This document shows, piece after piece, positions 8,795 through 24,755 of a stretch of DNA of 42,035 nt. Below the pieces are notes generated by a model. The model did no database searches. It saw nothing but the letters and a program-made list of their open reading frames with translations, and was not told the DNA's origin. This stretch comes from Pseudomonadota bacterium (GTDB lineage Bacteria; Desulfobacterota; RBG-13-43-22), in the NCBI GenBank assembly GCA_043798385.1, contig JAZDOU010000334.1:1-42035 (forward strand), read 5' to 3'. Numbering within the stretch: the first letter of the stretch is position 1; every line of letters starts with the position of its first letter. Both the position numbers and the translations under genes were made by a program.

Positions 8795-8914
8795 CCCAAC
8801 CCGGACCAGCCGGAACCAAGAGGTGGATATATAAACCATAATTGGTCCGGGTCCAGGGCGTGTTCTTTAATAAATTCTATCCATTTTGCGTAGATTTTTA
8901 TTCTTTAGTTACTA
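8795..8914 (+). repeat. 131-bp-family intergenic repeat, divergent short copy (copy D)
   Basis: Shares CCCAACCCGGACCAGCCGGAACCA...TGGTCCGGGT...GTTCTTTAATAAATTCT.TCCATTTTGCGTAGA.TTTTATTCTT.AGT.ACTA with the copies at 13611, 14650 and 24625. Confidence 0.85.
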
Positions 8915-8929
8915 AGGAGGAAATCGGTT

Positions 8930-9322
8930 ATGGCTAATGATTGTTGCGCCCCGTCAGGAAACATTATGCTCTTGCCCTGTTCCGGTGGTTCCAATGTCGG
9001 TCAACTGGCCAACCAGGCGGCCGTGGAACTGACTCAGGAAAGTTTTGGGAAAATGTACTGCCTTGCCGGCATCGGGGCCCATTTGGGCGGTTTTGTTCAG
9101 TCCGCTAAAGATGTCCCGGAGGTAATCGTTATTGATGGTTGTGAAGTCGGTTGTGGCAAAGAGATTATGGAACATGCCCAAGTCCCTCTTAAAAATTACC
9201 TGGTCCTGACCGGTCTGGGAATTGAAAAAAACAAAAATTTCAACCTACAGCGTCAGGACATTGACCAAGTTAAAAAGGCCGTAAAAGCCTCTCGTCAAAA
9301 AGCAGAAAAGGCCCCGGCATGA
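8930..9322 (+). CDS. DGC-domain putative zinc-binding protein
   Basis: AAGGAGG SD. LPCSGGSNVGQLAN ... VIDGCEVGCG matches the DGC-family signature. Confidence 0.7.
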   Translation: MANDCCAPSGNIMLLPCSGGSNVGQLANQAAVELTQESFGKMYCLAGIGAHLGGFVQSAKDVPEVIVIDGCEVGCGKEIMEHAQVPLKNYLVLTGLGIEKNKNFNLQRQDIDQVKKAVKASRQKAEKAPA

Positions 9323-9493
9323 CCGTGGCCGCTGTCTCTGGTGCAGGAGGTTATCCTGCCCTTTAAGGAAAAGCCTTCCGGAGCATCCTGTTGCGGATAG
9401 TTATTTTTTTAATTACGGTTCGGCCTATCCCCCTCCCGTTACCCGGGTTGCCGGGGTGCAAGGGATTGGCAGGCCGAGGGAGATATTTTTTTC

Positions 9494-9539
9494 TTGACAG
9501 AGGTTTTAATAAACTACATTATCATGAAGTAATATAGTC
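9494..9539 (+). promoter_or_regulatory. Candidate sigma-70 promoter plus AGTAATATAGT motif
   Basis: TTTTTTTCTTGACA (TTGACA at 9494-9499), CATTAT at 17-bp spacing. AGTAATATAGT 9529-9539 is the reverse complement of ACTATATTACT found at 2741 and 4892. It is preceded by a GC-rich hairpin and T-run (about 9422-9492) that probably terminates the upstream operon. Confidence 0.4.
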
Positions 9540-9559
9540 ATTTAAAGGGACAAAAAATA

Positions 9560-10057
9560 ATGGAATCCGAGGATATTACCCAAGTCAAAGTAGGCACTTT
9601 TCGGGTCGGGATTATGGGCCTCAAGGAAGTGATGGACGATCTGGCTTCCTCCCTGGCCCAGGCTACGGATGAAGAAATGGCCCGGGAATTAGTTTCCCGC
9701 CTCGCTAAGAAAAATTATATTTCAGAAAAGACCAGGGCCGAATACGGGCGGGCCTTTTTAAACGAGTTCAAGAAATATCTCGGCAGGCCGGTCACCGAAA
9801 GCGAACCGGCCGGGCTGACCATCCGGGTCCTGGGCCAGGGCTGTCCCAATTGTCATGCCCTTAGCCAAAGGATTATGGAGGTCCTAAGCGAATTAAACCT
9901 GCCTGCCGATTTCGAGCATGTTACGGATATTAAGGAAATCGCCCGGTACGGGGTTATGCAGAGCCCGGCCCTGGTTGTGAACAAAAAAATAGTGACCCGG
10001 GGGACGGTTCCCGGCAAGGCCCAACTGATCGAGTGGTTTAAAAAGGCCGCCGGATAA
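9560..10057 (+). CDS. Thioredoxin-like redox-active disulfide protein with N-terminal extension
   Basis: The C-terminal half (RVLGQGCPNCH...MQSPALVVN) resembles the 8557 protein. The roughly 85-aa N-terminal domain is unassigned. Confidence 0.7.
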   Translation: MESEDITQVKVGTFRVGIMGLKEVMDDLASSLAQATDEEMARELVSRLAKKNYISEKTRAEYGRAFLNEFKKYLGRPVTESEPAGLTIRVLGQGCPNCHALSQRIMEVLSELNLPADFEHVTDIKEIARYGVMQSPALVVNKKIVTRGTVPGKAQLIEWFKKAAG

Positions 10058-10059
10058 AA

Positions 10060-10305
10060 ATGGGCCAGCCGATTGTTTTGACCTTTACCGAGGAAGAAAT
10101 TCAGACCATCGTGCGCCTCGACCTGGATGCCGATCAGGCCGGGGCGTTACATTTCATTCGCGATACTATGGGCAGGAAATTAAAGGCCCTCAGCCGCCCC
10201 CATTGTGTCCCGGTCTTTGAGGTCACTTATAGCCCCAGGCAGAAAGAGGCCTTTCAGCCAACAGGAAGGAATAAGGAAAGATGCCGACCAAAGGACCAGT
10301 CATGA
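10060..10305 (+). CDS. Hypothetical protein
   Basis: 81-aa ORF, tightly packed between its neighbours (ATGA overlap with the next gene). No family recognised. Confidence 0.4.
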   Translation: MGQPIVLTFTEEEIQTIVRLDLDADQAGALHFIRDTMGRKLKALSRPHCVPVFEVTYSPRQKEAFQPTGRNKERCRPKDQS

Positions 10306-10568
10306 AGATTCCTCACTTACTTTTTTCGATTACTTTAATCCTTTTTTTGCTGTTGGGCGGCACCGTTTCTTTGGCCCAGGACAAGAAGGCCGTCTCCCCT
10401 GCTCCCACCGGACCTCAGCCGGGGACCCTCTCAGATCAAAATAAGCCGCCAGACCGGGATTGTGCCCAAGCTTCTACCCCGGTCCCCCCGGAAAAAAAGC
10501 AGACAGATCCTGAATCGTTAACACCCCCGCCGATAAAAATTCAGGAAGGCACCAATGCCGAGGGTTGA
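10302..10568 (+). CDS. Secreted proline-rich hypothetical protein
   Basis: ORF trimmed to MKIPHLLFSITLILFLLLGGTVSLA (signal peptide), followed by low-complexity Pro-rich sequence. Confidence 0.45.
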   Translation: MKIPHLLFSITLILFLLLGGTVSLAQDKKAVSPAPTGPQPGTLSDQNKPPDRDCAQASTPVPPEKKQTDPESLTPPPIKIQEGTNAEG

Positions 10569-10633
10569 TCCTGAAAAAAGGTCTCCGGGCGGAGACGATC
10601 GTTTAACAAAAGGAATAAAAGGAGGAAAACACT

Positions 10634-11725
10634 ATGTCCGAAGGGACTCCTAAAAAACTTTCCTTTCTGGACCGTTTCCTGACCCTGTGGATCTTTTTAG
10701 CCATGCTGATCGGTGTGGGCTCCGGCTATCTTTTTCCCAAGGTGGTCGGATTCTGGAATCTCTTCCAGGTTGACACCACCAATATCCCCATTGCCATCGG
10801 CCTGATCCTGATGATGTACCCTCCTCTGGCCAAGGTCAAATATGAAGAACTTGGAGAAGTCTTTAAAAATTACCGGGTCCTGACCCTCTCCCTGATCCAG
10901 AACTGGGTCATCGGCCCGATCCTGATGTTCTTCCTGGCCATCCTCTTTCTGGCCGGCTACCCCGAATACATGGTCGGCCTGATCATGATCGGCCTGGCCC
11001 GTTGCATCGCCATGGTCATCGTCTGGAACGAGCTGGCCTCCGGAGACACCGAATACTGTGCCGGTCTGGTGGCCTTCAATTCCATTTTCCAGGTCCTTTT
11101 CTTCTCCCTGTATGCCTATATTTTCATCACTATTCTGCCCGGCTGGTTCGGCCTGAAAGGCACAGTGGTGGATATTTCCATCGGTCAGATTGCCAAGAGT
11201 GTTTTTGTTTATCTGGGTATTCCTTTTATCGCCGGGGTCATTACCCGTTTCACCCTGATCAAGATCAAGGACAAGACCTGGTATCATGAAAAATTCATTC
11301 CCAAGATCAGCCCCATCACCCTGATCGCCCTGCTCTTCACCATCATCGTCATGTTTTCTCTGAAGGGGGAATTTATTGTTCAACTGCCATTGGATGTGAT
11401 ACGCATCGCCATCCCGCTGACCATTTATTTTGTCATCATGTTCTTTATCTCGTTTTATATGTCGATGAAAGTCAAGGCGACTTACGAACAATCCACCACC
11501 CTTTCCTTTACGGCCGCCTCCAATAATTTCGAACTGGCCATTGCCGTGGCGATAGCCGTCTTCGGCATCAACTCCGGGGCGGCCTTTGCGGCCGTCATCG
11601 GCCCTCTGGTCGAAGTTCCGGTCCTGATCAGCCTGGTCAATGTGGCCTTGTGGTTCAAACGAAAATACTTCCCTTTTGCTGTAGAGACGCCTACCGGCAT
11701 CTGTCATGTCACCTGTAAACCGTAA
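10634..11725 (+). CDS. acr3: ACR3-family arsenite efflux transporter
   Basis: [25 protein letters not shown]-terminus and the conserved [13 protein letters not shown] Cys motif are diagnostic of ACR3. Confidence 0.9.
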
Positions 11726-11729
11726 AAGA

Positions 11730-11771
11730 AAGGTTCAAGGTGTAAGGTATAAGGCTCAGGGTAAAGGAATT
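11730..11771 (+). repeat. Six tandem heptamers AAGGTNN
   Basis: AAGGTTC AAGGTGT AAGGTAT AAGGCTC AGGGTAA AGGAATT, located directly between acr3 and the next CDS. Confidence 0.7.
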
Positions 11772-11790
11772 AGAATGAAGAGAATGGCTC

Positions 11791-12315
11791 ATGTTACTAA
11801 ACAGCTACAGTAAAGAAATCTTTCGGCCCGAATGCAACCCCGGTTTTCAATCTCTGCACTGTATCGCCCGCTTGGATCAGGATATCAGGGAAGTCCTTCC
11901 TTATCTCAATACCGTTCTTGGTGGAGATGAGTACTATCAGGATCCCCCGGCAGTGACCTTCAGGCCTCAGGGCAAACTGATCACCGTTCATCCCGATAAG
12001 ATTGCCATTAATGCCCTCCGTGATGAGCAAGAGGCCGACCGGATCCTGGAGTGGCTCAAGAGAGAAATTAATGAGACCTGGGAAAAGAGGGCTATAATCA
12101 AACCGTCCTATGAAAGCCTGCCCCGTCCGCAGGTCTTTGAGGTCCTGAAGATGCTACCAAAAACCAACTGCCGTGAATGCGGTCAACCGACCTGTATGGT
12201 CTTTGCCGTGGCCGTTACCGAAGGGGTGAAAGGAGTGGAAGACTGCCCGCCGCTGAACAACGAGAGCAGGGAAAAACTACAGGGATATTTGAACCGCTTT
12301 CATTTGGATTTTTGA
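11791..12315 (+). CDS. Fe-S cluster domain protein (CdhE/Rnf-type N-terminal 4Fe-4S motif near the C-terminus)
   Basis: LPKTNCRECGQPTCMVFAVAV...CPP matches the putative Fe-S cluster (PF04060-like) signature. The rest is unassigned. Confidence 0.6.
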   Translation: MLLNSYSKEIFRPECNPGFQSLHCIARLDQDIREVLPYLNTVLGGDEYYQDPPAVTFRPQGKLITVHPDKIAINALRDEQEADRILEWLKREINETWEKRAIIKPSYESLPRPQVFEVLKMLPKTNCRECGQPTCMVFAVAVTEGVKGVEDCPPLNNESREKLQGYLNRFHLDF

Positions 12316-12319
12316 AGGA

Positions 12320-13534
12320 ATGGATAGAACCATAAACAAAAAAAGATGGCTCCTTTATTTGGTTTTAGCAACCATCTTAAGCGTCCTGTTGGTTTCTCCC
12401 TATCTTTTTGGGGAAGGGAAAAAAGAGGATATCCATTCTCTGAAGGAACTGATCGAACGCTATGATTCCGCCCGGTGCCAGGAGTGTCATCCGAAGCAAT
12501 ACGCCCAATGGGAGAAGTCCCATCATGCCCGTCCCTTAATGGGTATGGATGACTGGATCTTCATGTCTAAATACCTCAAGGAAGGGGTCCTGGCCGTGAA
12601 AGACCCTAAGAAGGCCACCAAGGCCAATTTCCCTTGTGCCAAATGCCATCTTCCTCAATTAAACCAAGCTACCGATGCAGTTGCTGCCGAACTGGCGGCA
12701 GCCGTCCTTCGTGATGATAAAAAACTCGTCAGACAATTAAACATCGGCTGCCTGGTCTGTCATCAGGATAAGGCCGTGATCCACCACAAACCGGAACCGG
12801 GCGTCTTATACGGGAAGAGGTTCCGGCGCCGCTTTGATGATCACAAAGGGGATGTAAAAAAGGTGCGGGAAAGCACTTTTATGAAATCGGCCCTCTTTTG
12901 CGGCCAATGCCACGGTTTAGGCCCCAATCTGGAATCTGAGATTCCGACCCAATGCGCCACCCTCTACGGCAGTTATCTCCATGCCTATATCCCATCGGGC
13001 GGATCTCAAACGTGTCAGGACTGCCACATGCCCAAGCGGGATCACACCTGCCTGCCCAATTTTAACAATCGAGAAGAAACAGCGGCCCGATTAAAAAATG
13101 CCCTGCCCATGGAAGTACAAACCCTGGGTTATATCTTTCAGATAGAAGAAGAAAAATACCAGCCTATGGCCGTTGTCAAGACCCGAATTACCAACAAAGC
13201 CGGGCATCGTATCCCTGATGGGTGACCGACCAGAACCCGGGTGGTCCTGGAAGTGACTGCATACCTAACGAACGGACAGAAGTTTTTTCAGACAGAAAAA
13301 ATTTACATGCCCCAGGCGACCGACAGCCGCAGCCCGCTCATGGCCCTTGGACCGGATAAAAAACTCGGCCTGATCCGGGATACCAGTATCCAGCCTTTTG
13401 CTCCCAAAGAAGAGACCTTTGAGATACCGGTGCCCAAGGGTGCCATCTGGTTGGATATAAACCTGAGTTACCAACCCCGGCCTGGAAATATTTATCCTAT
13501 CCATAGTATTAAGAAAAAAGTAACCATGAATTAA
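12320..13534 (+). CDS. Pentahaem c-type cytochrome, reading frame continued through an in-frame TGA (13223-13225)
   Basis: Signal anchor. Five CXXCH motifs (CQECH, CAKCH, CLVCH, CGQCH, CQDCH). ORFs 12320..13225 and 13241..13534 are in the same frame. The junction NKAGHRIPDG-TGA-PTRTRVVLEV lies inside what looks like one conserved GHxxPxG....R..LEV motif. Confidence 0.6.
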
Positions 13535-13610
13535 ATGGCTGAATGGCCCCGTTCCTAATATCGTCATGCCGTCAAAGCAGGAATTCAGGAATATTACCGG
13601 CTGGACTTTT

Positions 13611-13741
13611 TAGTGACTTAAGAATAAAATTCTACGCAAAATGGAAAGAATTTATTAAAAAACAAGCCGTTGACCCGGACCAACCAAGGGTTTTAACACA
13701 TTTTGTATATCCAATTTTGGTTCCGGCTGGTCCGGGTTGGG
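13611..13741 (-). repeat. 131-bp intergenic repeat, copy A (inverted relative to B, C and D)
   Basis: Its reverse complement matches copy B at 130 of 131 positions. Confidence 0.9.
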
Positions 13742-13779
13742 AAACCGTTAAATTCTATTGGTCAAAACAGCTCAAGAGG

Positions 13780-14640
13780 TTATGAAAGACTTTTAGCGAG
13801 GGTATCCAGTATCTTTTGGTTTAAACCGAGGGCCGCCCCGTCCAACCCCAGACTCAGACCCAGCAACTGGGGATAAAGGAGAGAAGGCACTCCCTGATTT
13901 TCGTCCGCTTCTTTTCCCATTATTTCCCCGACCCGGTCAAACTGCATTTGACAATGGGTACAGGCCACACAGAGCACATCAGCTCCGGATTCTTTGGCAC
14001 TTTCTATTTTCTTGGTGGTCAGTTCCAGGGACAAATCATTATTTTTACCCCACAAGGACTCCCCGCAACATTGGGTCCTGAGCGGATAATCCACACTGAC
14101 GGCACCAGTGACTTCAACCAGCCTCTCAAATTTACTCGGATTAAAGGGGTTATCAAATTGAACCACATCGCGGGGGCGTAAGATATGACAACCATAATGG
14201 GCGGCAACCTTGAGGTTCTGAAACGGCCGGACATTTTTCCCCAAGATACTTTCCGGAACGATATCCTCAGAAAGGACATTTAAAAGGTGCTTTATTTCCA
14301 CCTGCTCCGGATAGCGCAGACCTTCACCTTTTAACCATTCATTGACTTCCTTCAAAAGAAGCTCATTTTTTCTGAGTAAATGATCCGCATAGCGTAAGGT
14401 CCCGTAACAACACTGGCAAAGACATAACAAGGGCAATCCCTTTTCGCCGCTTATGGCAATATTTCGGGCCGAGGAGAAGATAAAGGCCCTGAAGTCCAGA
14501 AAACGGATCGGGTATCCACAACAATTAAATTCCAGATCCTCTAATTCAAGACCCAAGGTATTGAGCACCAGGCGGCTGGCCATTTCATACTGGGGGACGT
14601 AATAAGGGACCTTGCATCCTGGGAATAAGCTGTATTTCAT
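13780..14640 (-). CDS. HdrB-like CCG-domain protein (heterodisulfide reductase subunit B family)
   Basis: ORF trimmed to MKYSLFPGCK. Two CCG-type motifs (NCCGYP, TQCCGES) plus CxxC-rich segments. GGGAG SD supplied by the end of repeat copy B. Confidence 0.8.
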   Translation of the reverse strand: MKYSLFPGCKVPYYVPQYEMASRLVLNTLGLELEDLEFNCCGYPIRFLDFRAFIFSSARNIAISGEKGLPLLCLCQCCYGTLRYADHLLRKNELLLKEVNEWLKGEGLRYPEQVEIKHLLNVLSEDIVPESILGKNVRPFQNLKVAAHYGCHILRPRDVVQFDNPFNPSKFERLVEVTGAVSVDYPLRTQCCGESLWGKNNDLSLELTTKKIESAKESGADVLCVACTHCQMQFDRVGEIMGKEADENQGVPSLLYPQLLGLSLGLDGAALGLNQKILDTLAKSLS

Positions 14641-14649
14641 GATTTTTCT

Positions 14650-14780
14650 CCCAACCCGGACCAGCCGGAACCAAAATTGGATATACAAAATGTGTTAAAA
14701 CCCTTGGTTGGTCCGGGTCAACGGCTTGTTCTTTAATAAATTCTTTCCATTTTGCGTAGAATTTTATTCTTAAGTCACTA
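14650..14780 (+). repeat. 131-bp intergenic repeat, copy B
   Basis: See copy A. Its last 11 nt overlap the stop and the last three codons of the upstream minus-strand gene (14770..). Confidence 0.9.
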
Positions 14781-16464
14781 AATCCCCTTCGCCGGGAGTC
14801 CGGCTTTTCCCCTGCTGAAAAGCCGTATTTTTAAGTTCAAACAGGATATCGGTTACCCGGATCCCCTGGGGGCAGGATTCCTGACAATTATAACAACCCA
14901 GGCAGTCCCAGACCATCCTGGCTCCCAAGACGTTATCCTGAAGTCCGTATTTTAAACTTTGCATAATAAGATGCGGCAGCAATCCAAGTTTTTCCAGAGG
15001 ATTTTTATAATTAACCACCACCGGGCAGGCGTTGGTACAGGTCATACAGGTAAAACAGGCATAAAAAGTGCTGGCCTGTAAGGAAAGACCGACACTCTGG
15101 GTAAATTTTTTCCCGGAAGGCGGTAGTTGGATAACGGCATTTTTTCTATCCCAATCAAATTTCTCCACAAAGGCATCTCGTGTCCGGGTGAAAAGTTCAG
15201 GGCATCCCCGATGGCTCAAATCCTTATCCATAACAAACCACTGGTCCTGAAGAACGATCCCCACCGGACAGACGGTGCTGCAACGGTAACAATCGGTGCA
15301 GATGGATTCCCCTTCCCGGATCATCGGAAGAGTTGAGAGGGACGACCCGTTTTTATTGTTCAGGGTAGTTAAAGCCTTCAATTTTTCCGAAGGCAGGATT
15401 TGGATATTGGGAATGGATTGGTAAACAGGTCCCACGGAACAATGGATACTGCAGGTAGCGCAGTGGGTACAGGCATCCAGCTCAATAGCCTGAACCGTGG
15501 CTATATTGGCGGGAGAGGCCTTGGGTCGATCCATCACACCGTTGATCAGAAGCACCAGAGGGCTGGTCAGGATATGGAAAAATTTGGTAAACGGCAGCAA
15601 GGCCAGCCCGAGAAAACAGACCAGAAAATGGAAATAAAGAAGGGACTCCCGGATGGTTTTCTGACTCAAGATAAGGGCCGATGGGGTGATTGCCTTGGCC
15701 AGCCCGTAAGACACAAAAGCCGCCGTCGGCCTGGAATGACAGGAGGCACAATTGAGGACATGGACCTCCCGGCCTTTGGTCAAGACAGCGGCCTCCGTGG
15801 ATGGGGTCTTGGGGAAGACCACGGCAAAGTCTCTGGCCCAATAGGCCCTCAGGGCATCGGCTTCCTGTTCGTCGGATATGGAAGAATATTCGGAAACCAT
15901 TTCCTCATACCGCTGGTGGGAAACGATCTTGGTGGCCTCTAAAAAAAACCCGGAAAGGGCGATCAAGGCCAGAATCACCAGGGCATAGATATCCGCACTC
16001 CCCGTGGTCAGACGCATGATCCGGTTGGTGATCCGGCGATAGGCGGCGATGGCCAGGCCTAACAACATCATGGCCCCGAACAGATTCCTCAGAAAAAGAA
16101 AAGGATTGAGGGTCGAGAAGTATTCGGGAAAGAGCTTCTGGCTGACATAGCGATCCAGGGCATGCATAAGGAGCAGCAGGATAAACCCGTAGGCGATACA
16201 AAAATGCATGAACCAGCGGACAAACCCTTCCCGGGTTATCTGCTTCTGAAGGAAGACCTCCAAAAACCAGATCTTAATGAGATGAAACAGTTTTAGGCTG
16301 AAAAAGACGGAGAAAACTCCTTTGAGGGCCTCTAAAAATCGTTTAGGAGCGGATATTCTTTCGGAGGGATCACCGGTCCACCGTCGAAACCACCTTAAAA
16401 TCTTGACCCCTGTCCCGATTCCAAAAATAATCAAAGCGGCATATAAACTGATTTTAAAAAACAT
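14770..16464 (-). CDS. Membrane NarI/DsrM/HdrE-like domain fused to HdrC-like double 4Fe-4S ferredoxin domains
   Basis: The N-terminal ~300 aa have five or six TM helices with conserved His residues. The C-terminal half carries four CxxCxxCxxxCP-type motifs (CTHCATCSIHC, CTDCYRCSTVCP, CFTCMTCTNACP, CLGCYNCQESCP). Confidence 0.75.
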   Translation of the reverse strand: MFFKISLYAALIIFGIGTGVKILRWFRRWTGDPSERISAPKRFLEALKGVFSVFFSLKLFHLIKIWFLEVFLQKQITREGFVRWFMHFCIAYGFILLLLMHALDRYVSQKLFPEYFSTLNPFLFLRNLFGAMMLLGLAIAAYRRITNRIMRLTTGSADIYALVILALIALSGFFLEATKIVSHQRYEEMVSEYSSISDEQEADALRAYWARDFAVVFPKTPSTEAAVLTKGREVHVLNCASCHSRPTAAFVSYGLAKAITPSALILSQKTIRESLLYFHFLVCFLGLALLPFTKFFHILTSPLVLLINGVMDRPKASPANIATVQAIELDACTHCATCSIHCSVGPVYQSIPNIQILPSEKLKALTTLNNKNGSSLSTLPMIREGESICTDCYRCSTVCPVGIVLQDQWFVMDKDLSHRGCPELFTRTRDAFVEKFDWDRKNAVIQLPPSGKKFTQSVGLSLQASTFYACFTCMTCTNACPVVVNYKNPLEKLGLLPHLIMQSLKYGLQDNVLGARMVWDCLGCYNCQESCPQGIRVTDILFELKNTAFQQGKSRTPGEGDLVT

Positions 16465-16482
16465 GGTCCCTTTCCCTGAATA

Positions 16483-16680
16483 GTTCTCATCCGGAAACGA
16501 TCTTTTCGGATGAGAACATACATCTGCCGGCTATCCTCTTTGGCCAGAAATCCTTTAAAAAGGATTTCTGGCGAGAGCTTCATGCCGGTCCCCGAATGGG
16601 GACCTTAGCATAGGTCGATAAAATCGACCGGCCGAAATCGAGGTGTTTCCATCCGAAAATTCGAATTTCCGGATGGAAAC
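16483..16680 (+). repeat. Mosaic array of five hairpins (left copy)
   Basis: Hairpins at 16483-16517, 16542-16572, 16587-16604, 16613-16629 and 16645-16680. Hairpins 1, 2 and 5 recur in reverse order and orientation at 19757-19909. Confidence 0.85.
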
Positions 16681-16902
16681 TGAATACTATCTTTATAGCC
16701 TGCGCCCATTCCCTCTGACCCTTTAACGATTCACTACCGGCCGGGGAATTCAGTTTAATTTGGGAAATGTATCACAAGAATTTCTTGTAATCAAATAAAA
16801 AAATAATACGGGGATTAAAAGCGACTTTATCAATTATCTATCCATATCAGCCTATTTTTTTATCGCCGATCCGAATAAACCCGTTATTTTTTAAAGAAGG
16901 GC

Positions 16903-16937: not shown

Positions 16938-18260
16938 ATGAAGTCCACACCGGCCTTTTTAAAAATTATCCTGGATAGTATCACCGAGGGGGTCTTTACA
17001 ATCAATAAAGATTGGATGATTACCTCCTTCAATCAAGCGGCCGAAAAAATAACCGGATTTCCAAGAGAAAAGGCTATCGGCAAAAAATGTTTTGAGGTCT
17101 TTCAGGCCGATATCTGTCAGGAGGCCTGTGCCCTGGCCCGGACCTTGAAAACTGGAAAAAATGTGGTGGATCTGCCGGTCAATATTTTAGATGCCCATGG
17201 AAAGGTTATTCCCATCGGCGTAACGACTGCCGTCCTGAAAGACAGCCAGGGCCGGATGATGGGCGGGGTCGAGACCTTTAGGGATTTGAGCACTATCGAG
17301 GCCCTGCGCAAAGAAATCACCCAAAAGTATACCTTAAACGACATTATCAGCAAGAGTGATATCCTACAGAAAATTTTTAATAATCTTCCTGACATCGCCC
17401 AAAGCGACAGCACTGTTCTGATTCAGGGTCCCAGCGGTTCCGGCAAGGAACTGCTCGCCAAAGCCATTCACGAACTGAGTCCGAGGAAGGGAAAACCCTT
17501 TGTGGCCATCAATTGCAGCGCTTTGCCGGAGACCCTGCTTGAATCTGAGCTTTTCGGCTATGTCCGCGGGGCTTTTACGGATGCCAAAAAGGATAAACCC
17601 GGAAAATTTTCCCAAGCCGATTCGGGAACGTTGTTTTTAGACGAAATCGGGGATCTGCCCCTGAAGGTACAAGCCAAGTTATTACGAGTCCTTCAGGAAA
17701 AGACCTATGAACCTCTGGGTTCTAATGTCAGTAAACCGGTCAAGGCCCGATTGATCTCGGCCACCAATAAAAATCTCAAAGGTCTGGTCAAGGGCGGCCT
17801 ATTCAGAGATGACCTGTATTACCGGCTGAAAGTGATCCAAATCGATCTACCGTCCTTAAGAGAACGCCGCGAAGACATCCCTTTGTTGATCGAACATTTT
17901 CTGAACAAATTCAACCTTAGGACAGGCAAAAAAATCAATCAGTTATCTCCGAAGGCCCTCCATATTTTAATGAATTATGAGTACCCGGGAAATATCCGGG
18001 AGTTGGAAAATATCATTGAGCACGCCTTTGTTCTCTGCCATGGTTCGACCATCCAACTGGCCCATCTGCCGCCAGAACTGCCCAAGGAAACCAGGGAGAT
18101 AGACGATCTCCAACCTCCTTTTGAAAATAAATTAAAAGACCGGGAACGGGAGCTCATTCAACAGACCCTGGAAAAATATCACGGCAACCGCACCCTGACC
18201 GCCAAGGAATTGGGGATCCATCCCACCACCCTGTGGCGAAAACTAAAACACCCCGCTTAA
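16938..18260 (+). CDS. Sigma-54-dependent Fis-family transcriptional activator with N-terminal PAS domain
   Basis: PAS domain (ITEGVFTINKDW), AAA+ Walker A GPSGSGKE, ESELFGY...GAFTDA loop, C-terminal Fis helix-turn-helix (LTAKELGIHPTTLWRKL). Confidence 0.9.
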   Translation: MKSTPAFLKIILDSITEGVFTINKDWMITSFNQAAEKITGFPREKAIGKKCFEVFQADICQEACALARTLKTGKNVVDLPVNILDAHGKVIPIGVTTAVLKDSQGRMMGGVETFRDLSTIEALRKEITQKYTLNDIISKSDILQKIFNNLPDIAQSDSTVLIQGPSGSGKELLAKAIHELSPRKGKPFVAINCSALPETLLESELFGYVRGAFTDAKKDKPGKFSQADSGTLFLDEIGDLPLKVQAKLLRVLQEKTYEPLGSNVSKPVKARLISATNKNLKGLVKGGLFRDDLYYRLKVIQIDLPSLRERREDIPLLIEHFLNKFNLRTGKKINQLSPKALHILMNYEYPGNIRELENIIEHAFVLCHGSTIQLAHLPPELPKETREIDDLQPPFENKLKDRERELIQQTLEKYHGNRTLTAKELGIHPTTLWRKLKHPA

Positions 18261-18407: not shown

Positions 18408-18432
18408 TATTAAATGGGGGTGAGGGCTAAAA

Positions 18433-19383: not shown

Positions 19384-19503
19384 AAAATTTCGGATTTCGG
19401 CCTCCGGCCCGGAGGGGCCCACGCCCCGGGGGGATTTCGGATTTCGGAATTAAGGACACGGTAAAGCTAAAATTTTAAAGTTCAAAAAAAAACAGGAGGA
19501 ATT

Positions 19504-19746
19504 ATGCCAAGAAGAGATGGTACCGGCCCGGCCGGAAAAGGTTCTGGTGGAGGTTTTGGATCAGGAAGAGGCCTGGGCGGAGGGGGAGGACTTGGATCAG
19601 GAAGAGGCCTGGGCGGAGGGGCCGGCATGGGAGCCGGCGGGAATTGTCTCTGCCCTAAATGCGGCAATAAAAGCTCCCATGGCCGGGGAGTACCCTGCAA
19701 CACCCTGAAGTGTTCCAAATGCGGCACGACCATGGTTAGGGAATAG
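19504..19746 (+). CDS. DUF5320-family protein with Gly-rich repeat and C-terminal CxxC...CxxC zinc-ribbon-like motif
   Basis: AGGAGG SD. MPRRDGTGPAGKG N-terminus typical of DUF5320. CPKCG...CSKCG. Confidence 0.75.
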   Translation: MPRRDGTGPAGKGSGGGFGSGRGLGGGGGLGSGRGLGGGAGMGAGGNCLCPKCGNKSSHGRGVPCNTLKCSKCGTTMVRE

Positions 19747-19756
19747 AGATTAAATA

Positions 19757-19909
19757 GTTTCCATCCGGAAATTCAAATTTCCGGATGGAAATACCTGGAT
19801 TCTGACTCGAAGCTCTGGCCAGAAACCCCTTTTTCAAAGGGTTTCTGGCCATGGAGACAAATCGACCACGGTATGTTCTCATCCGGAAAGATCATTTCCG
19901 GATGAGAAC
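19757..19909 (-). repeat. Mosaic hairpin array (right copy, inverted relative to 16483-16680)
   Basis: Hairpins at 19758-19791, 19817-19850 and 19875-19909 correspond to hairpins 5, 2 and 1 of the left array. Confidence 0.85.
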
Positions 19910-20107
19910 TAAATAGAAAGGAATATCTTCCCGGCAAAAACCGGATGAGCCCCGCCCATTGGGGGGCCACCTCTCACTCCGCCATGGGTGGGGCTCAAAC
20001 TCCTTGCTCTCTGTGAACTCTGTGAGAGATAAAAGGGTTTTTGAGAAAAATGGTTTTTTTAAAGATAAATTTGAAAAAATAAAAAATTCTTGAAAGGAGG
20101 TTCAGTT

Positions 20108-21358
20108 ATGAACAGCAGTTGTGCACACGATTCCAATGCGGGGAAGGAACCCCAACGGGCGGAGGAGGATGCCGCCATCAATAGATCATTATCCCGTATA
20201 AAAAATAAATTATTGGTTATGAGCGGAAAGGGAGGGGTCGGGAAAAGCAGTCTGGCCGTAAACCTAGCCGCCGGATTATCATTAAAAGGCTACAAAGTTG
20301 GCCTTATGGATGTCGATCTCCACGGACCGAGCATCCCCCGCATGCTTGGTATCCACAACCAGACACCCCTTCAACACAAGGATGGGATTTACCCCATTCC
20401 CGTCAATGACCTCTTAAAGGTGATTTCTATTGAAGTGCTGATGCCTGACAAGGATTCACCGACTATCTGGCGCGGTCCTTTGAAGATCGGGGTCATTCGG
20501 CAATTTATAGCCGATGTGATCTGGGGAGACCTGGATTTCCTGATTATTGATTCCCCCCCGGGGACCGGAGATGAACCCCTGACCGTGGCCCAGACCATTC
20601 CCGGTGCCCAAGCGGTCATCGTCACCACACCTCAGGAAATCTCCTTGTCCGACGTGCGGAAGTCTATCAATTTTTGTCGACAGGTCGACATGCCCATTAT
20701 GGGATTGGTGGAAAACATGAGCGGCTACATCTGCCCCCATTGCGGTCAGGAATCGGCCATCTTTAAAAAAGACGGAGGAAAACGAACCGCCGTCTCCATG
20801 AAGGTCCCTTTCCTGGGAAGTATTCCTTTTGACATTCAACTCATGGAAAAAGGGGATGAAGGACAGGCCTATCTATTTAATAACCCGGCACCGGCGGTTA
20901 AAGAGGCCCTGGATGGGATTATTGAAAAAATAATAACCACCGCCGATCAAAATAAAAAAGAAATTATAAAACCGATAACGGAGGTCTTACCCATAATGAA
21001 CGCAATCAATGTAACGTCTGATAGTTTAAAGATCGCCATCCCCATGGCCGAGGGGATGCTTTGCAATCACTTCGGTCATTGCGAGCAATTCGCCTTGATT
21101 GACTTACAGGGAAAAAACATTATCCAAAAAGTGATGGTCACTCCACCTCCCCATGAACCCGGTCTCCTGCCCCGCTGGCTGGGTGAAAAAGGAGTCAATC
21201 TCATCATTGCCGGCGGCATGGGCCAAAGGGCTGTCAGCCTTTTTAATGAACGGGGGATCAAGGTCTTGACCGGGGCACCGCAACTGGCTCCGGAAGCATT
21301 GATCGCCCAGTATGTCAATCAAACCCTGATTACCGGAGACAATGTCTGTGATCATTAG
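20108..21358 (+). CDS. Mrp/NBP35 (ApbC-like) P-loop ATPase fused to a C-terminal NifX-like domain
   Basis: ORF trimmed to the ATG after AAAGGAGG. VMSGKGGVGKSS deviant Walker A, CPHCG motif. The C-terminal ~110 aa (IAIPMAEGMLCNHFGHCEQFALID...IIAGGMG) form a NifX/NifB-like domain. Confidence 0.85.
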   Translation: MNSSCAHDSNAGKEPQRAEEDAAINRSLSRIKNKLLVMSGKGGVGKSSLAVNLAAGLSLKGYKVGLMDVDLHGPSIPRMLGIHNQTPLQHKDGIYPIPVNDLLKVISIEVLMPDKDSPTIWRGPLKIGVIRQFIADVIWGDLDFLIIDSPPGTGDEPLTVAQTIPGAQAVIVTTPQEISLSDVRKSINFCRQVDMPIMGLVENMSGYICPHCGQESAIFKKDGGKRTAVSMKVPFLGSIPFDIQLMEKGDEGQAYLFNNPAPAVKEALDGIIEKIITTADQNKKEIIKPITEVLPIMNAINVTSDSLKIAIPMAEGMLCNHFGHCEQFALIDLQGKNIIQKVMVTPPPHEPGLLPRWLGEKGVNLIIAGGMGQRAVSLFNERGIKVLTGAPQLAPEALIAQYVNQTLITGDNVCDH

Positions 21359-22196
21359 TATTGCCAGCGGCAAAGGGGGAACCGGCAAGACCAGTGTGGC
21401 CGTAGCCTTGGCGCTATCTTTGAAAGAACCGGTGCAGCTCCTGGACTGTGATGTGGAAGCCCCTAATGGCCACATTTTTATGAATCCCCGCTGGGATAAT
21501 AAAGAGACCATTTATGCTCAAATCCCGGTGGTCGATGAAACCAAATGCACCTATTGCCGGGCCTGTTCCCAGTTGTGCCGGTTCAAGGCCATTTTGGTGC
21601 TCGGAGAAACGATCCTGACTTTTTCGGAAATGTGCCATGCCTGCGGGGGGTGCTTCCTGGTCTGCGAACCCAAGGCCCTGAACCCGGGGAAAAAAGAATT
21701 GGGAGAGATAGAAGAGGGTTGGTCCGGGGCCATTCGTTTTGTTCATGGCCGCTTGCGGGTTGGGGAGCCCATGTCCCCCCCCTTGATCCGGGAGGTCAAA
21801 AAGCGGATAAAGAATGATGCCCTGGCTATCCTGGATGCCCCACCGGGCACCTCCTGCCCGGTCATTCAGACCGTCAAAGGATCGGATTATACCATCCTGG
21901 TGACCGAACCGACCCCCTTCGGACTTTATGATTTGAAACTGGCCGTAGCGGCTTTGGGATCCTTGAATATTCCCTGCGGAGTGATCCTGAACCGAGCCGA
22001 CATTGGAAATAATGAAACCAAGGGCTATCTGCGATCCGAAGGGATCCCTTTACTAATGGAGATACCTTTTGAGCGCAGGATTGCCGAAGGGTATGCGAAA
22101 GGACAGTCACTGGTTGAAATACGGCCGGAATTGAAGGAAGAATTTCAAAAACTGCTTCTGGATATTAAGAAGCAAACAGAAAAAATCCGGGCATGA
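21342..22196 (+). CDS. MinD/ParA-type P-loop ATPase with inserted double 4Fe-4S ferredoxin motif
   Basis: ASGKGGTGKTS Walker A, CTYCRACSQLC and CHACGGCFLVC inserts. Confidence 0.85.
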   Translation: MSVIISIASGKGGTGKTSVAVALALSLKEPVQLLDCDVEAPNGHIFMNPRWDNKETIYAQIPVVDETKCTYCRACSQLCRFKAILVLGETILTFSEMCHACGGCFLVCEPKALNPGKKELGEIEEGWSGAIRFVHGRLRVGEPMSPPLIREVKKRIKNDALAILDAPPGTSCPVIQTVKGSDYTILVTEPTPFGLYDLKLAVAALGSLNIPCGVILNRADIGNNETKGYLRSEGIPLLMEIPFERRIAEGYAKGQSLVEIRPELKEEFQKLLLDIKKQTEKIRA

Positions 22197-22238
22197 CCTG
22201 AAACGAAGGCGGCTGATCCTTTTTAGAAAGAAGGGGCT

Positions 22239-22505
22239 ATGAAAAACCCGGTAAAAATTATGCACATTGACGCTGATTATCAGGTTCATTATATCATTGT
22301 TCAGAATGGATCATTAATCCATTCAACGATACCCTTACAGACAGCGGTCAAATTCCTTAAGACCATGGAGTTTGATTTAATTATATCCGAACCCCAAAAT
22401 AAAGCCTTAATGAAAAAAAATGAAAAAAATAGTACTCACCAAAAAACGCTTCCCAAACCTATCGTCTCATGTGAGAGCAATCCAGCTCCCATTCATCCGG
22501 AATAG
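22239..22505 (+). CDS. Small half-receiver-like protein (paralog of 5364..5567)
   Basis: 88 aa with an SD-like GAAGGGG. Conserved block ...AVKFLKTMEFDLIISEPQN shared with the 5364 ORF. Confidence 0.5.
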   Translation: MKNPVKIMHIDADYQVHYIIVQNGSLIHSTIPLQTAVKFLKTMEFDLIISEPQNKALMKKNEKNSTHQKTLPKPIVSCESNPAPIHPE

Positions 22506-22523
22506 GGTTTATGGGGTACGTTT

Positions 22524-23399
22524 ATGAATAAAAGAAAAGAATTATGCGTCTTAAGCGGGAAAGGCGGCACCGGCAAAACCAGCCTGGTGGGTGCCTTGGC
22601 CGCTTTAGTCCCGAATAAAATTCTGGTCGACTGTGATGTGGACGCTCCCGATCTGCACTTGCTGCTGGCGCCTGAGGTTAAAAGCCAGGAGGCCTTCATG
22701 GGAGGGCGCAAGGCGAAGATTATCCGGGAGTTATGCACGGATTGCGGACGATGCCGGGAAGTATGCCGTTTTGAAGCCATCAGCGAAGACTTTCAGGTGG
22801 ATCCGATCTCCTGTGAAGGCTGTGGCGTCTGTGTCCATTTCTGCTCCTTCGGGGCCATTGAATTTCCTTTAGCCCTATGCGGAGAATGGTTTATTTCCGA
22901 AACACGCTTTGGGCCGATGGTCCATGCCCAGTTGGGGGCAGGACAGGAGAATTCAGGCCTGCTGGTAGCCCTCATACGCGGCAAAGCACAGGATCTGGCT
23001 GAAGAGAAAGGTCTGTCTCTGATCTTAGTTGACGGCCCCCCGGGCATCGGCTGTCCGGTGATCTCTTCCCTGACCGGTGCTACCGGGGTTTTGATCGTCA
23101 CCGAGCCGACCCTTTCCGGTCTGCATGATTTGAATCGGGTCCTTGAGTTAGCCGGTCACTTCCAGATCCCGGGGATGGTTCTGATCAACAAATATGACCT
23201 GAACCAGGAAATGACCGACCGAATTGAAACCTATTGCCGGGAGAAAGGACTCGGATTGGCCGGGCGTCTCCCTTATGACCCGGTAGTCACTGAGGCCATG
23301 ATCCAGGGAAAAACACTCCCGGAATTGAGCCGTAACGGCCTGGGAAAAGAGATTAAAACAATCTGGGGAAGAATTCAGGAACACTTGCTTAAGGATTAG
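22524..23399 (+). CDS. MinD/ParA-type P-loop ATPase with inserted double 4Fe-4S ferredoxin motif (second copy)
   Basis: LSGKGGTGKTS Walker A, CTDCGRCREVC and CEGCGVCVHFC inserts. Confidence 0.85.
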   Translation: MNKRKELCVLSGKGGTGKTSLVGALAALVPNKILVDCDVDAPDLHLLLAPEVKSQEAFMGGRKAKIIRELCTDCGRCREVCRFEAISEDFQVDPISCEGCGVCVHFCSFGAIEFPLALCGEWFISETRFGPMVHAQLGAGQENSGLLVALIRGKAQDLAEEKGLSLILVDGPPGIGCPVISSLTGATGVLIVTEPTLSGLHDLNRVLELAGHFQIPGMVLINKYDLNQEMTDRIETYCREKGLGLAGRLPYDPVVTEAMIQGKTLPELSRNGLGKEIKTIWGRIQEHLLKD

Positions 23400-23417
23400 G
23401 GAGTTGATTAAAGAACA

Positions 23418-23882
23418 ATGTCATCAGATAGGGCCCATTTTTACACCATGCCGCTTTCTAAAGATAAAGACGAACCAGGTTCCATTCCCGGTCAGGCCGT
23501 TCAGCCCTGGCTGGGCCCTTATAACGAAGGAATCATCGACCAACCGGACGGGCTGGCCTACGTGACCGGACCTTGCGGCGACTCTATGGAGATCTCATTA
23601 AGAATCCGGGAGAATCGGATCACGGACAGCCGTTTCCGGGTCAAAGGATGTGTCGTCAGCCGGGCCTGCGCCTCGGCAGCCGCGGCCCTGGCCAAAGGGA
23701 AAGAGTTGGAAGAAGCCTGGGATATTGATGAAAAAGAGATTGCCAAAAGCCTGCCGGGGCTTCCGGTGGATCACCGGCATTGCGCCCTGCTGGCCCGGGA
23801 CACACTACGTCAGGCTATTGGAAGATATATTAAGCCGTCATGCCACGATAGCGGCGTGACACTACCAAATCATGAAAAGTAG
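23418..23882 (+). CDS. IscU/NifU-N-terminal-like Fe-S scaffold protein
   Basis: GPCGDSMEISL, KGCVVSRACASA and DHRHCALLARDTL give the three-Cys U-type scaffold pattern. The last ~16 codons derive from a repeat unit that recurs 83 bp downstream. Confidence 0.75.
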   Translation: MSSDRAHFYTMPLSKDKDEPGSIPGQAVQPWLGPYNEGIIDQPDGLAYVTGPCGDSMEISLRIRENRITDSRFRVKGCVVSRACASAAAALAKGKELEEAWDIDEKEIAKSLPGLPVDHRHCALLARDTLRQAIGRYIKPSCHDSGVTLPNHEK

Positions 23883-24232
23883 GCTCATTAGACTTTGAAC
23901 TCTATTTTCGAACTAAGCCGTCATGCCACGATAGTGGCGTGACACCACCAGCCGGTCGGGCCGCTCGACGCGGCTCCCGAATGGGAGCCTTTCTATAAGG
24001 TCGGCAAAGCCGACCGTCTGTCGAGCTTTCGAAGAGGCTCCCATCCGGGAGCCGATCTGCCGACCCTAAAAGGAGGCTTCCCTTCGGAAGCCGGGACATG
24101 AAAATAAGGCCGGTAGAAGATTGAACCTCGAACCTTATTTTCGAACTAGTCGGAAGGGAAAAGGGAGTTGGACTAATTTAGAAGCCGGGTTCCCTTTGGG
24201 GAACCAACTCCGGCTAAGAAGGAGGAAGGCAT
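23883..24232. repeat. REP/BIME-like mosaic of short GC-rich hairpins and direct repeats
   Basis: Hairpins include GGCTCCCgaatGGGAGCC, GGTCGGCaaaGCCGACC, GGCTCCCatccGGGAGCC, GGCTTCCcttcGGAAGCC and GGTTCCCtttgGGGAACC. The region is bounded by TATTTTCGAACTA at 23903 and 24136. Confidence 0.8.
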
Positions 24233-24568
24233 ATGCCAGGTTTTGATCGCACGGGTCCCATGGGAATGGGATCAAGGACAGGAGGAGGCCGAGGATTTTG
24301 TGGAACCGGCGCTCTCCGAAACCCAGCCGGTTCGGGCTGGTTCGGCAGAGGCCGTGGTATGGGCCGAGGCCTCATGGGGTTGGGTTTAGGTTTAGGGGGT
24401 TATTTTTTTAGGCCCTGGGCCGCCAGACGGGGATTCTTTCCGTCCTATAACCCAACCAGCGAAGAAGAGGCCTCTCAGCTTAAGGATGAAGCCTCTTCCC
24501 TGAGGGACATCCTCAGCTCTATTGAACAACGGCTGGGGGAATTAGAAAAACAAAAACCTAAAGAGTGA
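24233..24568 (+). CDS. DUF5320-family protein with C-terminal coiled coil
   Basis: AAGGAGG SD. MPGFDRTGPMGMGSRTGGGRGFC N-terminus. C-terminal SEEEASQLKDEASSLRDILSSIEQRLGELE. Confidence 0.8.
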   Translation: MPGFDRTGPMGMGSRTGGGRGFCGTGALRNPAGSGWFGRGRGMGRGLMGLGLGLGGYFFRPWAARRGFFPSYNPTSEEEASQLKDEASSLRDILSSIEQRLGELEKQKPKE

Positions 24569-24586
24569 CTATTCACCACCCCTGAA

Positions 24587-24613
24587 GAACCTCGTGCTTT
24601 TTCGGCGAGGTTC
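24587..24613 (+). terminator. Probable intrinsic terminator
   Basis: GAACCTCG / CGAGGTTC 8-bp stem followed by TTATTATTT. Confidence 0.5.
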
Positions 24614-24624
24614 TTATTATTTAA

Positions 24625-24755
24625 CCCAACCCGGACCAGCCGGAACCAAAATTGGATATTCGAAACGTTTTAAATACCTTGGTTGGTCCGGGTCAACGGC
24701 TTGTTCTGCAATAAATTCTTTCCATTTTGCGTAGAATTTTATTCTTAAGTCACTA
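24625..24755 (+). repeat. 131-bp intergenic repeat, copy C
   Basis: Same ends and stem as copies A and B, but a different loop sequence. It ends on the A of the ATG at 24755. Confidence 0.9.

Follow-up and report, generated by a model that had tools for sequence, protein, structure and literature searches.

Four copies of a short repeat with two unlike conserved ends in a Desulfobacterota contig, probably a small non-autonomous mobile element

Few families of small, non-coding mobile repeats are understood mechanistically, yet such repeats shape operon structure, break metagenome assemblies and seed rearrangements. REP, BIME and REPIN sequences, which are linked to the Y1 HUH transposase RAYT, are species-specific and built on a palindromic unit, and terminal inverted repeats (TIRs) together with target-site duplications (TSDs) are the defining features of the classical bacterial MITEs (Correia, ERIC, RUP, Nezha, Chunjie and others). 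Helitrons end in 5′-TC..CTRR-3′ and insert in A^T, and for IS91 the corresponding sequences are GTTC/CTTG. IS200/IS605 elements have a target only 5′ of the left end, which is unchanged on excision, and the DEDD elements of the IS110/IS1111 group, guided by bridge or seeker RNA, have targets of ~14 nt. Here we analyzed a repeat whose copies are likely to be those of a small non-autonomous mobile DNA element, and not of a regulatory RNA.

The window is a stretch of 42,035 nucleotides (contig JAZDOU010000334.1 of assembly GCA_043798385.1, from a bacterium placed by GTDB in Desulfobacterota, RBG-13-43-22). A sequence-only reading had pointed out a repeat family with four copies in it, and all four were confirmed at the following positions:

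Copy A, 8795 to 8915, plus strand: 121 nt, divergent, with a loop 14 nt shorter
Copy B, 13610 to 13741, minus strand: 132 nt, downstream of an HdrB-like gene
Copy C, 14650 to 14781, plus strand: 132 nt, antisense to both neighbouring genes
Copy D, 24625 to 24756, plus strand: 132 nt, touching the ATG (24755) of an MBL-fold gene

The left-end 20-mer ACCCGGACCAGCCGGAACCA had exactly four perfect matches and the right-end 23-mer had four at ≤1 mismatch, with 0 in 100 shuffles for each; the four-copy repeat is beyond chance expectation. Copy A has a Thioredoxin_3 gene (8557-8790) on one side and a DGC-domain gene (8930-9322) on the other, and copy C is flanked by an HdrC/NarI-like Fe-S gene (14770-16464, minus strand) and the HdrB-like gene (13783-14640, minus strand). 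Around the latter, a CCG-domain gene, B and C form inverted repeats of 134 nt that are 99% complementary. B and D are 92% alike. The observation that substitutions fall mostly in the loop held for C against D (about 8 of 10); B and C differ by a single base.

The element is typically 120-135 bp long and, as had been noticed from the sequence, non-coding, intergenic and hairpin-bearing. In each copy a short, lineage-variable core lies between two terminal modules that are unlike each other and strongly conserved. The parts of copy C are as follows:

14650 to 14676, plus strand: left-end module (LE), CCCAACCCGGACCAGCCGGAACCAAAA, 27 nt
14656 to 14668, plus strand: LE hairpin CCGG-ACCAG-CCGG, the same in A, B and D
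14654 to 14718, plus strand: long hairpin, in which ACCCGGACC (14654-14662) pairs with GGTCCGGGT (14710-14718)
14735 to 14781, plus strand: right-end module (RE), ..AATAAATTCTTTCCATTTTGCGTAGAATTTTATTCTTAAGTCACTAA
14758 to 14770, plus strand: RE hairpin AGAAT-TTT-ATTCT, 11 nt before the end

LE, which reads CCCAACCCGGACCAGCCGGAACCAAA and has a 4-bp hairpin at its very tip, was invariant in the window copies (4/4) and identical in 25 of 44 copies picked by the right end alone. Its 5′ boundary is sharp, and its hairpin showed one compensatory variant, CCGA..TCGG, in locus L128. RE is ~45 nt long and ends in ..TTTGCGTAGAATTTTATTCTTAAGTCACTAA; its 5-bp hairpin stands 11 nt from the tip. In copy C, RE contains stops in three frames (TAG 14757, TAA 14771, TAA 14779), and the upstream ORF has a new end, L-V-T-stop, within it. 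In the window, the element rewrote the C-terminus of one protein. The two termini, CAACCCGGACC.. and ..TTAAGTCAC, lack complementarity, and TIRs are absent. The core between LE and RE depends on the lineage: six loci on other metagenome contigs (L086, L106, L107, L128, L151 and L154) had the same LE and RE around unrelated low-complexity hairpin cores, and truncated LE-only and RE-only forms were seen.

The 3′ arm of the long hairpin is a partial inverted copy of LE, the length of which varies among subfamilies. This copy makes up most of the core in this lineage and gives rise to the hairpin noticed in the sequence-only reading. The stem ACCCGGACC/GGTCCGGGT was present in 4/4 copies, with the AACCAA/TTGGTT extension in B, C and D; the stem described as 10 bp is real, at 9 bp, but it showed no covariation, with 0 of 9 pairs compensatory and a covariation term of 0.05 in 46 diverse copies. 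Conservation resides instead in sequence blocks at both ends, and the 5′ block has no 3′ pairing partner in many other lineages, so the earlier explanation of the conservation pattern by a conserved RNA or DNA structure was not upheld.

These results bear on whether the element is a cis-acting structured RNA or sRNA, with the hairpin and its flanks serving as stabilizer, processing site or terminator/attenuator, and RE giving promoter or translation signals to the next gene, which we consider improbable. The plus strand of B, C and D did fold better than shuffles (z about -3.2 to -3.5), into one uninterrupted 15-bp helix that includes three G-U pairs, whereas copy A and the reverse strands folded no better than shuffles. 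RE holds a weak sigma-70-like match, TTAATA-18-TAGAAT (9/12), and the MBL-fold gene, which has no Shine-Dalgarno sequence, begins in the last bases of copy D; the -35 match, however, is poor and missing from other subfamilies, and the same operon junctions work without the element in relatives. The element was also found in metatranscriptome contigs, and RE depth exceeded LE depth in two RNA runs. Those contigs contain flanks on both sides, which indicates read-through transcription, and no element-internal transcript ends were found in them, the contigs carrying no strand information. Orientation relative to flanking genes was random (15 ++, 17 --, 11 divergent and 7 convergent), which argues against a strand-specific cis-regulatory RNA, and the neighbouring genes are functionally unrelated. 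An Rfam scan, as had been proposed, gave no hit in the window at the gathering score; at E≤10 the element stayed free of matches, as it did in 12 related loci. The sequence-only reading had listed a known match, or random placement together with a lack of structural conservation, as findings against it: there was no known match, orientation was random, and covariation was unsupportive.

Other roles for LE were rejected as well. As a riboswitch or leader in reverse orientation, it would precede unrelated genes (purF, RND adaptor, SDR, ECF sigma, P-type ATPase, xerD, thiolase and others); as a sigma-54, ECF or sigma-70 promoter it has, on inspection, a misfitting spacing; and as a coding sequence it has no consistent frame or stop. 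To our knowledge, judging by inspection, the element bears no resemblance to a tRNA, tmRNA, SRP or RNase P fragment that might be an att-site remnant.

The limits of the element, set from many metagenome copies and from empty sites, are CC|CAACCCGG...GTCAC|TAA, with 1-nt ambiguity. In 78 full copies the boundaries were sharp, with CCCAA on the left and ..ACTAA on the right; the two differ consistently and are therefore not a TSD, and filled and empty sites have 1 nt in common. The earlier statements that TIRs and target duplications are absent were thus borne out, and with them the view that this is not a classic MITE, although the evidence still points to a mobile element. Empty sites were read from groundwater-metagenome contigs of relatives, 90-97% identical and otherwise collinear. 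At copy A, three of them (X1, X2 and X5) skip 8796-8911 exactly, with the joint 8795->8912, giving GCAGCCTAAGGAGG or, read across the junction, GCAGCC|TAAGGAGG. At copy C, the joint is 14651->14781 with TT between in X2 and 14651->14784 with TCAAG in X1, and the empty site TTTTTCTCC-TT-AATCCCC reads GGGGATTAA|GGAGAAAAATCATG on the gene strand, that is, stop codon plus Shine-Dalgarno sequence. These are the only two precise empty sites seen, and both carry T where the filled left junction has C. At copy D, relatives are missing 24572-25425, the element together with almost all of the gene, a larger deletion rather than a precise excision, and around copy B their contigs diverge at ~13521 and ~13832. 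In a second population (L140) no insertion polymorphism was seen, and Logan contigs stop at 2 of 3 copies there in the runs examined. Precise loss could in principle be explained as deletion between CCYAA and CTAA microhomologies instead of excision.

The target deduced from these junctions is a CCTAA-like pentanucleotide, of which relatives have a single one in place of copies A and C, with insertion of the whole unit between CC and TAA (+/-1 nt), and in L106 a head-to-tail pair of elements has CCTAA in common. CCTAA is part of TAAGGAGG or of its complement, and the target belongs to a stop codon plus Shine-Dalgarno sequence (TAAGGAGG, or TTAGG on the other strand). This accounts for the contact of copies with ribosome-binding sites and start codons better than the translation or transcription signals suggested by the sequence-only reading. 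Copies would land at operon junctions and leave the downstream ribosome-binding site intact, and for this reason they would be tolerated.

The same junctions speak to an integron- or Xer-like site, with the hairpin as an attC-type site or RE as a dif-like one, and the copies as ORF-less cassettes moved by a tyrosine recombinase. The left boundary RYYYAAC (GTTRGG on the other strand) resembles an integron core site, the hairpin is bulged, LE and RE bracket one gene (ecfT, pointing to LE) in L008, and the RE segment TTTGCGTAGAA resembles a XerC arm at 7-8 of 11 positions. However, the XerD-arm equivalent does not match and the RE palindrome lies 14 nt from the junction. There is no R′/R″ pairing, as the 3′ arm ends in ..GGGTCAAC and not GTTGGG; the crossover from the two empty sites falls after TTA instead of at G|TT; and at both sites the base that the target should have contributed is a different one. 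Copies are also dispersed, not arrayed, and no integrase was seen nearby in the loci examined. This explanation is largely refuted by the junction analysis, and we give it very little credence.

The mobile-element explanation is further supported by the abundance of the repeat. Metagenome depth over the element was ~100-250 times that of the flanks (53-176x, 350-790x and 880-1630x compared to ~5-16x), and at copy B, where similarity stops at 13609/13610 and 13741/13742, depth reached up to ~1600x against ~6x. At least 32 loci were found in MAG172 and at least 9 in CAZVHO01, with dozens of copies per genome, in either orientation, among housekeeping genes. Genes bracketed by two copies included an hdrB-like gene, an oxidoreductase, a transporter and a monooxygenase. 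The 99% identity of B and C, the lack of C in relatives and the divergence of relatives' contigs around B suggest that the element has been active recently.

LE was identical in MAGs labelled as ~ten phyla, the taxon labels being those of the record titles. LE alone, with a sharp 5′ boundary, was found in MAGs labelled Clostridia, Anaerolineae, Aminicenantes, KSB1, Planctomycetota, FCPU426, Calditrichaceae and others, with GC contents from 39 to 63%. In the named MAGs outside Desulfobacterota, nhmmer gave nothing significant for RE; by eye, some RE likeness can be seen there, as TTCTTGCC.. and ..GTAAG..CTRA.

No transposase, recombinase or autonomous copy was found in 157 loci (~1 Mb), and none of these loci showed ends in common with an autonomous IS. 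All-against-all clustering of ORFs within 3.5 kb yielded housekeeping genes only, as did Pfam on 65 ORFs inside solo LEs and the set of genes bracketed by two copies, and the genes adjoining solo LEs are likewise housekeeping. The sole candidate for a cargo-carrying or autonomous copy, LE..ecfT..RE over 934 nt in L008, is probably two partial copies. Comparison with annotated plasmids and phages (blastn) and a viral-contig scan gave chance hits or none, and searches of the literature with the sequence string, Deltaproteobacteria MITEs and the CCTAA target found no description of the element.

A REP/BIME-like mosaic repeat associated with the host, which a domesticated HUH enzyme present in single copy (a RAYT-like Y1 transposase) would keep and spread and which might have host roles such as mRNA stabilization or protein binding sites, would agree with the missing autonomous copy, the mosaic structure with its LE-only and RE-only forms, the dozens of copies per genome and the REPIN-like hairpin formed by inverted LE duplication. 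GTAG also stands just 5′ of the RE hairpin, a 5′ feature that REPs reportedly have, but it is lost in Clostridia-type variants. REPs evolve together with their RAYT and are species-specific, whereas the ends here are identical across lineages; two unlike ends contrast with the symmetric REP doublet; and no RAYT-like gene was seen between copies in the loci examined. We consider this explanation unlikely, if somewhat less so than the RNA.

We return to a non-autonomous mobile element. That no transposase is linked to it in the 157 loci counts against this explanation. The element would be mobilized in trans, by an enzyme whose gene lies elsewhere and which recognizes each end by its sequence. 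Asymmetric ends, a subterminal 3′ hairpin, a two-sided short target, no TSD and heterogeneous interiors would place its architecture nearest to elements of single-strand or site-specific enzymes, namely HUH rolling-circle (IS91/Helitron-like), IS200/IS605-like, IS110-like DEDD and serine or tyrosine recombinases. Within this explanation, our leading guess, a tentative one, is that the mover may be an HUH-type peel-and-paste or rolling-circle enzyme. It is also conceivable, at similarly modest odds, that the repeats represent an unrecognized class of prokaryotic non-autonomous transposons with Helitron-like architecture, a CC^TAA target, and the 27-nt LE across ~ten phyla of anaerobic environmental bacteria, moved by an enzyme as yet linked to no IS family. 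The mover of such a class might be a broadly conserved host enzyme, which, if true, would explain identical ends in genomes of such different GC content.

In the groundwater and lake metagenomes examined, few sequences are more abundant than this family, and it sits in arsenic-resistance and heterodisulfide-reductase-type operons. The conservation of its ends reaches well past that normally seen in REPs or MITEs, and the enzyme, once identified, could thus prove to belong to a transposition system that is new or unexpectedly broad and has a compact target of 5 nt. In annotation, knowing the family avoids mis-called "sRNAs" over copies and spurious ORFs, such as the TTG-start extension of the hdrB-like ORF (13780-14688) and a 72-aa ORF (24617-24835), both of which run through a copy.

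Compared to known systems, the element is like classical MITEs in size, copy number, intergenic position, insertion polymorphism among strains and co-transcription with neighbours, and differs in the two features that define them. With IS110/IS1111 it has in common the lack of TIRs, site-specific insertion, precise excision and little or no duplication, and detached small non-coding modules of that group occur alone, as a preprint indicates for ssr9 of ISPpu9 (bioRxiv 10.1101/2025.01.17.633520). However, only 5 nt of target are conserved here, no DEDD gene was seen, and the 1 nt common at the junction falls short of the core that IS110 or tyrosine recombinases would be expected to have. IS200/IS605 and PATEs also lack TIRs and TSDs, bear subterminal hairpins, use a short and specific target flanking the left end, and include short derivatives with LE and RE only; their two hairpins are alike, in contrast to CCGG-ACCAG-CCGG and AGAAT-TTT-ATTCT here, and the element has conserved CC on the left and TAA on the right, shows no strand or orientation bias, and has no tnpA or tnpB present. 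This two-sided target fits neither IS200/IS605 nor IS91. REP/BIME/REPIN sequences are likewise short, non-coding, hairpin-forming and intergenic, in tens to hundreds of copies, with mosaic or truncated forms, no internal transposase, and positions within operons and between genes in both orientations. RE even presents GTAG followed by AGAAT/ATTCT, and LE with its inverted partial copy a doublet-like hairpin, but the element has two unlike termini conserved across phyla and a defined pentanucleotide target, GTAG is lost elsewhere, and no RAYT was seen. We know of no miniature IS91 derivatives, and no Y2 HUH gene was found in the loci examined. With C(C)AA at its 5′ end and CC^TAA as target, the element departs from the termini and targets of Helitrons and IS91, and the 3′ ..CTAA would fit the Helitron CTRR if TAA were counted as element, which the junction analysis disfavours. 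In architecture, the element agrees with non-autonomous Helitrons of eukaryotes and with bacterial IS91/ISCR in its asymmetric ends without TIR or TSD, its hairpin, which stops 11 nt short of the terminal ..CTAA (those systems have theirs ~10-12 nt from the 3′ end), families defined by ~30 nt per end, heterogeneous interiors and a short fixed target; this resemblance is architectural only.

The four copies of the element were found where the sequence-only reading had placed them, and its 5′ 20-mer and 3′ 23-mer each occurred 4 times in the window, compared to 0 times in 100 shuffles.

Copies of the element in the window
Copy A, 8795-8915, plus strand: flanked by Thioredoxin_3 and DGC-domain genes belonging to an ArsR/permease/Acr3 cluster
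Copy B, 13610-13741, minus strand: flanked by a CCG-domain (HdrB-like) gene, and for the B/C pair by a gene for a NarI-like plus 4Fe-4S (HdrC/DsrK-like) protein
Copy C, 14650-14781, plus strand: flanked by the CCG-domain (HdrB-like) and NarI-like plus 4Fe-4S (HdrC/DsrK-like) genes
Copy D, 24625-24756, plus strand: flanked by DUF5320 and MBL-fold genes

Copies B and C form 134-nt inverted repeats, 906 nt apart and 99% complementary, copies B and D are 92% alike, and copy A is the most divergent, with 14 nt of the loop missing. The stem ACCCGGACC/GGTCCGGGT is common to all four. Copies B, C and D fold as RNA into a 15-bp helix that includes three G-U pairs (z about -3.3 against shuffles), while copy A and the reverse strands folded no better than shuffles.

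Contigs of 90-97% identical relatives from four groundwater metagenomes were aligned to the window, and sites with and without the element were compared. The relatives skipped 8796-8911 (copy A) exactly in three runs, and copy C from 14651 to 14781 or 14784, where 2-5 bases had no match, giving the empty sites GCAGCCTAAGGAGG (A) and TTTTTCTCC-TT-AATCCCC (C). Contigs of the relatives diverge around copy B, and similarity of many community copies ends at its edges, 13609/10 and 13741/2. Metagenome depth was 50-1600x over the element, compared to 5-16x over its flanks. The element is thus mobile, a discrete unit that is precisely present or absent. At copy D the relatives have ACCACCTA in place of 854 nt (24572-25425), which include the copy and nearly all of the MBL-fold gene. 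Since the last 28 nt of that gene remain, the relatives appear to have undergone a deletion, as opposed to an insertion here.

Logos of 78 full copies showed an invariant CCCAA on the left and ..TAAGTNACTAA on the right, with random sequence outside, and neither terminal inverted repeats nor target-site duplications were found at the ends. The left pentamer CCCAA differs consistently from the right pentamer ACTAA, the C of the filled left junction is T in both empty sites, and only 1 nt is common to filled and empty sites. These observations are most simply read as CAACCCGG...GTCAC inserting into a CCTAA-like target, between its CC and its TAA, with no duplication of the target. At L106, a related locus outside the window, two elements stand head to tail across one CCTAA.

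The target, CCTAA on one strand and TTAGG on its complement, belongs to a "stop codon + Shine-Dalgarno" sequence, and because of this overlap the ends of the element touch ribosome-binding sites (RBSs) and start codons. Copy A lies immediately 5′ of the AGGAGG of the DGC gene, while copy C, read on the gene strand, separates GAT-TAA, which includes the hdrC-like gene's stop codon, from GGAG, the hdrB-like gene's RBS, which is kept. In relatives the HdrC/NarI-like protein ends in ..GEGD and its TAA overlaps with the next gene's RBS; here the ORF (14770-16464, minus strand) takes its last three codons and stop (L-V-T-stop) from the right-end module (RE, ~45 nt) of copy C (14770-14781), and the protein now ends in ..GEGDLVT. 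RE has a stop codon in each of the three reading frames. Copy D directly adjoins the MBL-fold gene's ATG at 24755, and that gene lacks a Shine-Dalgarno sequence. A promoter-like match in RE (TTAATA-18-TAGAAT) is weak. Metatranscriptome contigs, from strand-blind data, include the element plus sequence from either flank, indicating that transcription reads through it.

The sequence-only reading had favoured a conserved RNA or DNA structure over a coding sequence. Its repeat family is real and extends beyond what it described, being widespread and mobile with ends shared across phyla, but a structured RNA was not demonstrated: the 9-bp stem had no covariation in 46 diverse copies, indicating conservation of sequence and not of pairing, and orientation relative to neighbouring genes was random (15 ++, 17 --, 11 divergent, 7 convergent). 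No Rfam family matched the element, and the genes adjoining its copies are unrelated to each other. An attC site was also considered and rejected, there being no R box, a wrong crossover point and dispersed copies.

One genome per species was scanned for exact matches to the 5′ 20-mer of the 27-nt left-end module (LE), which gave at least 78 loci, where about 1 was expected by chance, with at least 32 in the Thermodesulfobacteriota MAG JBFMBU01 and at least 9 in a second Thermodesulfobacteriota MAG, CAZVHO01. Desulfobacterota MAGs carry the entire 120-135-nt unit, in several subfamilies differing in the middle. MAGs labelled Clostridia, Anaerolineae, Chloroflexi, Aminicenantes, KSB1, Planctomycetota, FCPU426, Calditrichaceae and others (locus GC 39-63%) carry CCYAACCCGGACCAGCCGGAACCAAA, with a sharp 5′ boundary, followed by unrelated sequence, most often a long hairpin of low complexity that contains T-runs and is repeated within each genome. 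These hairpins are lineage-specific (L015, L026, L036, L049, L051, L054, L078 and others; e.g. GCCACAAAGGCACAAAGACAC.., CGAAGCACGAAGCACGAAAC.., GCGCAGAGCACGCAGAG.., with T-runs on either side), and they look like bidirectional intrinsic terminators. Scanning metagenomes with the RE core recovered ~50 real elements, mostly from one lake population (Ga0233425). LE was identical in 25 of 44 copies selected by RE, a sample thus unbiased for LE, and most of the others differed at 1-3 positions; at L128 the small LE hairpin has a compensatory change, with CCGA..TCGG instead of CCGG..CCGG. That LE is identical in very different genomes suggests either an enzyme spreading very recently and widely or a conserved host function.

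In six of the elements recovered with the RE core (L086, L106, L107, L128, L151 and L154), both ends surround quite different cores. Element lengths cluster at 110-135 nt, and the few that reach 370 nt have nested insertions inside. At four loci of MAG JBFMBU01 (L009, L029:1960-2010, L040 and L058), copies are interrupted or cut short by a different repeat (..TAAATGGTCTCAAAATAATATAGAC / GGTCTCGCAAAAAGT..), in nested insertions from a second family. At L008, LE and RE lie 934 nt apart with ecfT between them, most likely as two partial copies.

Other repeats were observed in the window. Two inverted copies of ~200 nt each (16481-16692 and 19745-19911) both contain two long palindromes, GTTCTCATCCGGAAA..TTTCCGGATGAGAAC and GTTTCCATCCGGAAATT..AATTTCCGGATGGAAAC, bracket sigma-54 activator (16938-18260) and NifX-like genes, and have a metagenome depth of 80-160x compared to ~8x in the flanks; the pair perhaps represents a further multicopy element or, alternatively, a shared enhancer-binding site. 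In region 23831-24160, two direct copies of a 37-nt repeat precede several GC-rich hairpins; the region reaches a depth of 357x, is missing from relatives (joint 23833 to 24159) and has a sub-threshold Rfam match to the Bp1_781 sRNA (29 bits, E 4e-4). This region probably represents another mobile or structured element, one unrelated to the four-copy family. Two glycine-rich ORFs, one at 24233-24568 assigned by Pfam to DUF5320 and one at 19504-19746, whose 36-nt tandem repeat (19546-19617) encodes GGGxGSGRGLGG repeats, belong to a NifX-like, Mrp/NBP35, CooC-like P-loop and NifU-like cluster under the sigma-54 activator.

The element occurs in many copies, has no gene inside, and combines a pentanucleotide target read on both sides with a heterogeneous interior and asymmetric conserved termini, each bearing a small hairpin. 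It is filed among small non-coding mobile repeats, and is less likely than not to represent a transposition system that is genuinely new. No transposase or recombinase gene was found beside or inside LE-only copies or between paired copies, and mobilisation would occur in trans, by an enzyme reading the two ends by sequence. A RAYT-like enzyme, encoded in single copy, is a serious rival as the driver, and an IS110-like, tyrosine or serine recombinase could also move the element. By architecture, single-stranded or site-specific chemistry would be the closest kind, and a circular intermediate would carry an excision junction joining ..TTAAGTCAC directly to CAACCCGGACC... The best architectural match appears to be a non-autonomous rolling-circle (Helitron/IS91-like) element: although Helitron/IS91-like elements have termini and a target of their own that differ from those seen here, and no HUH gene was found with the element, their families are likewise defined by ~30 nt per end with a hairpin ~11 nt before the 3′ end. 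In IS200/IS605 elements the hairpins of the two ends resemble each other, the target is on one side only and there is strand bias, so they fit less well than rolling-circle elements.
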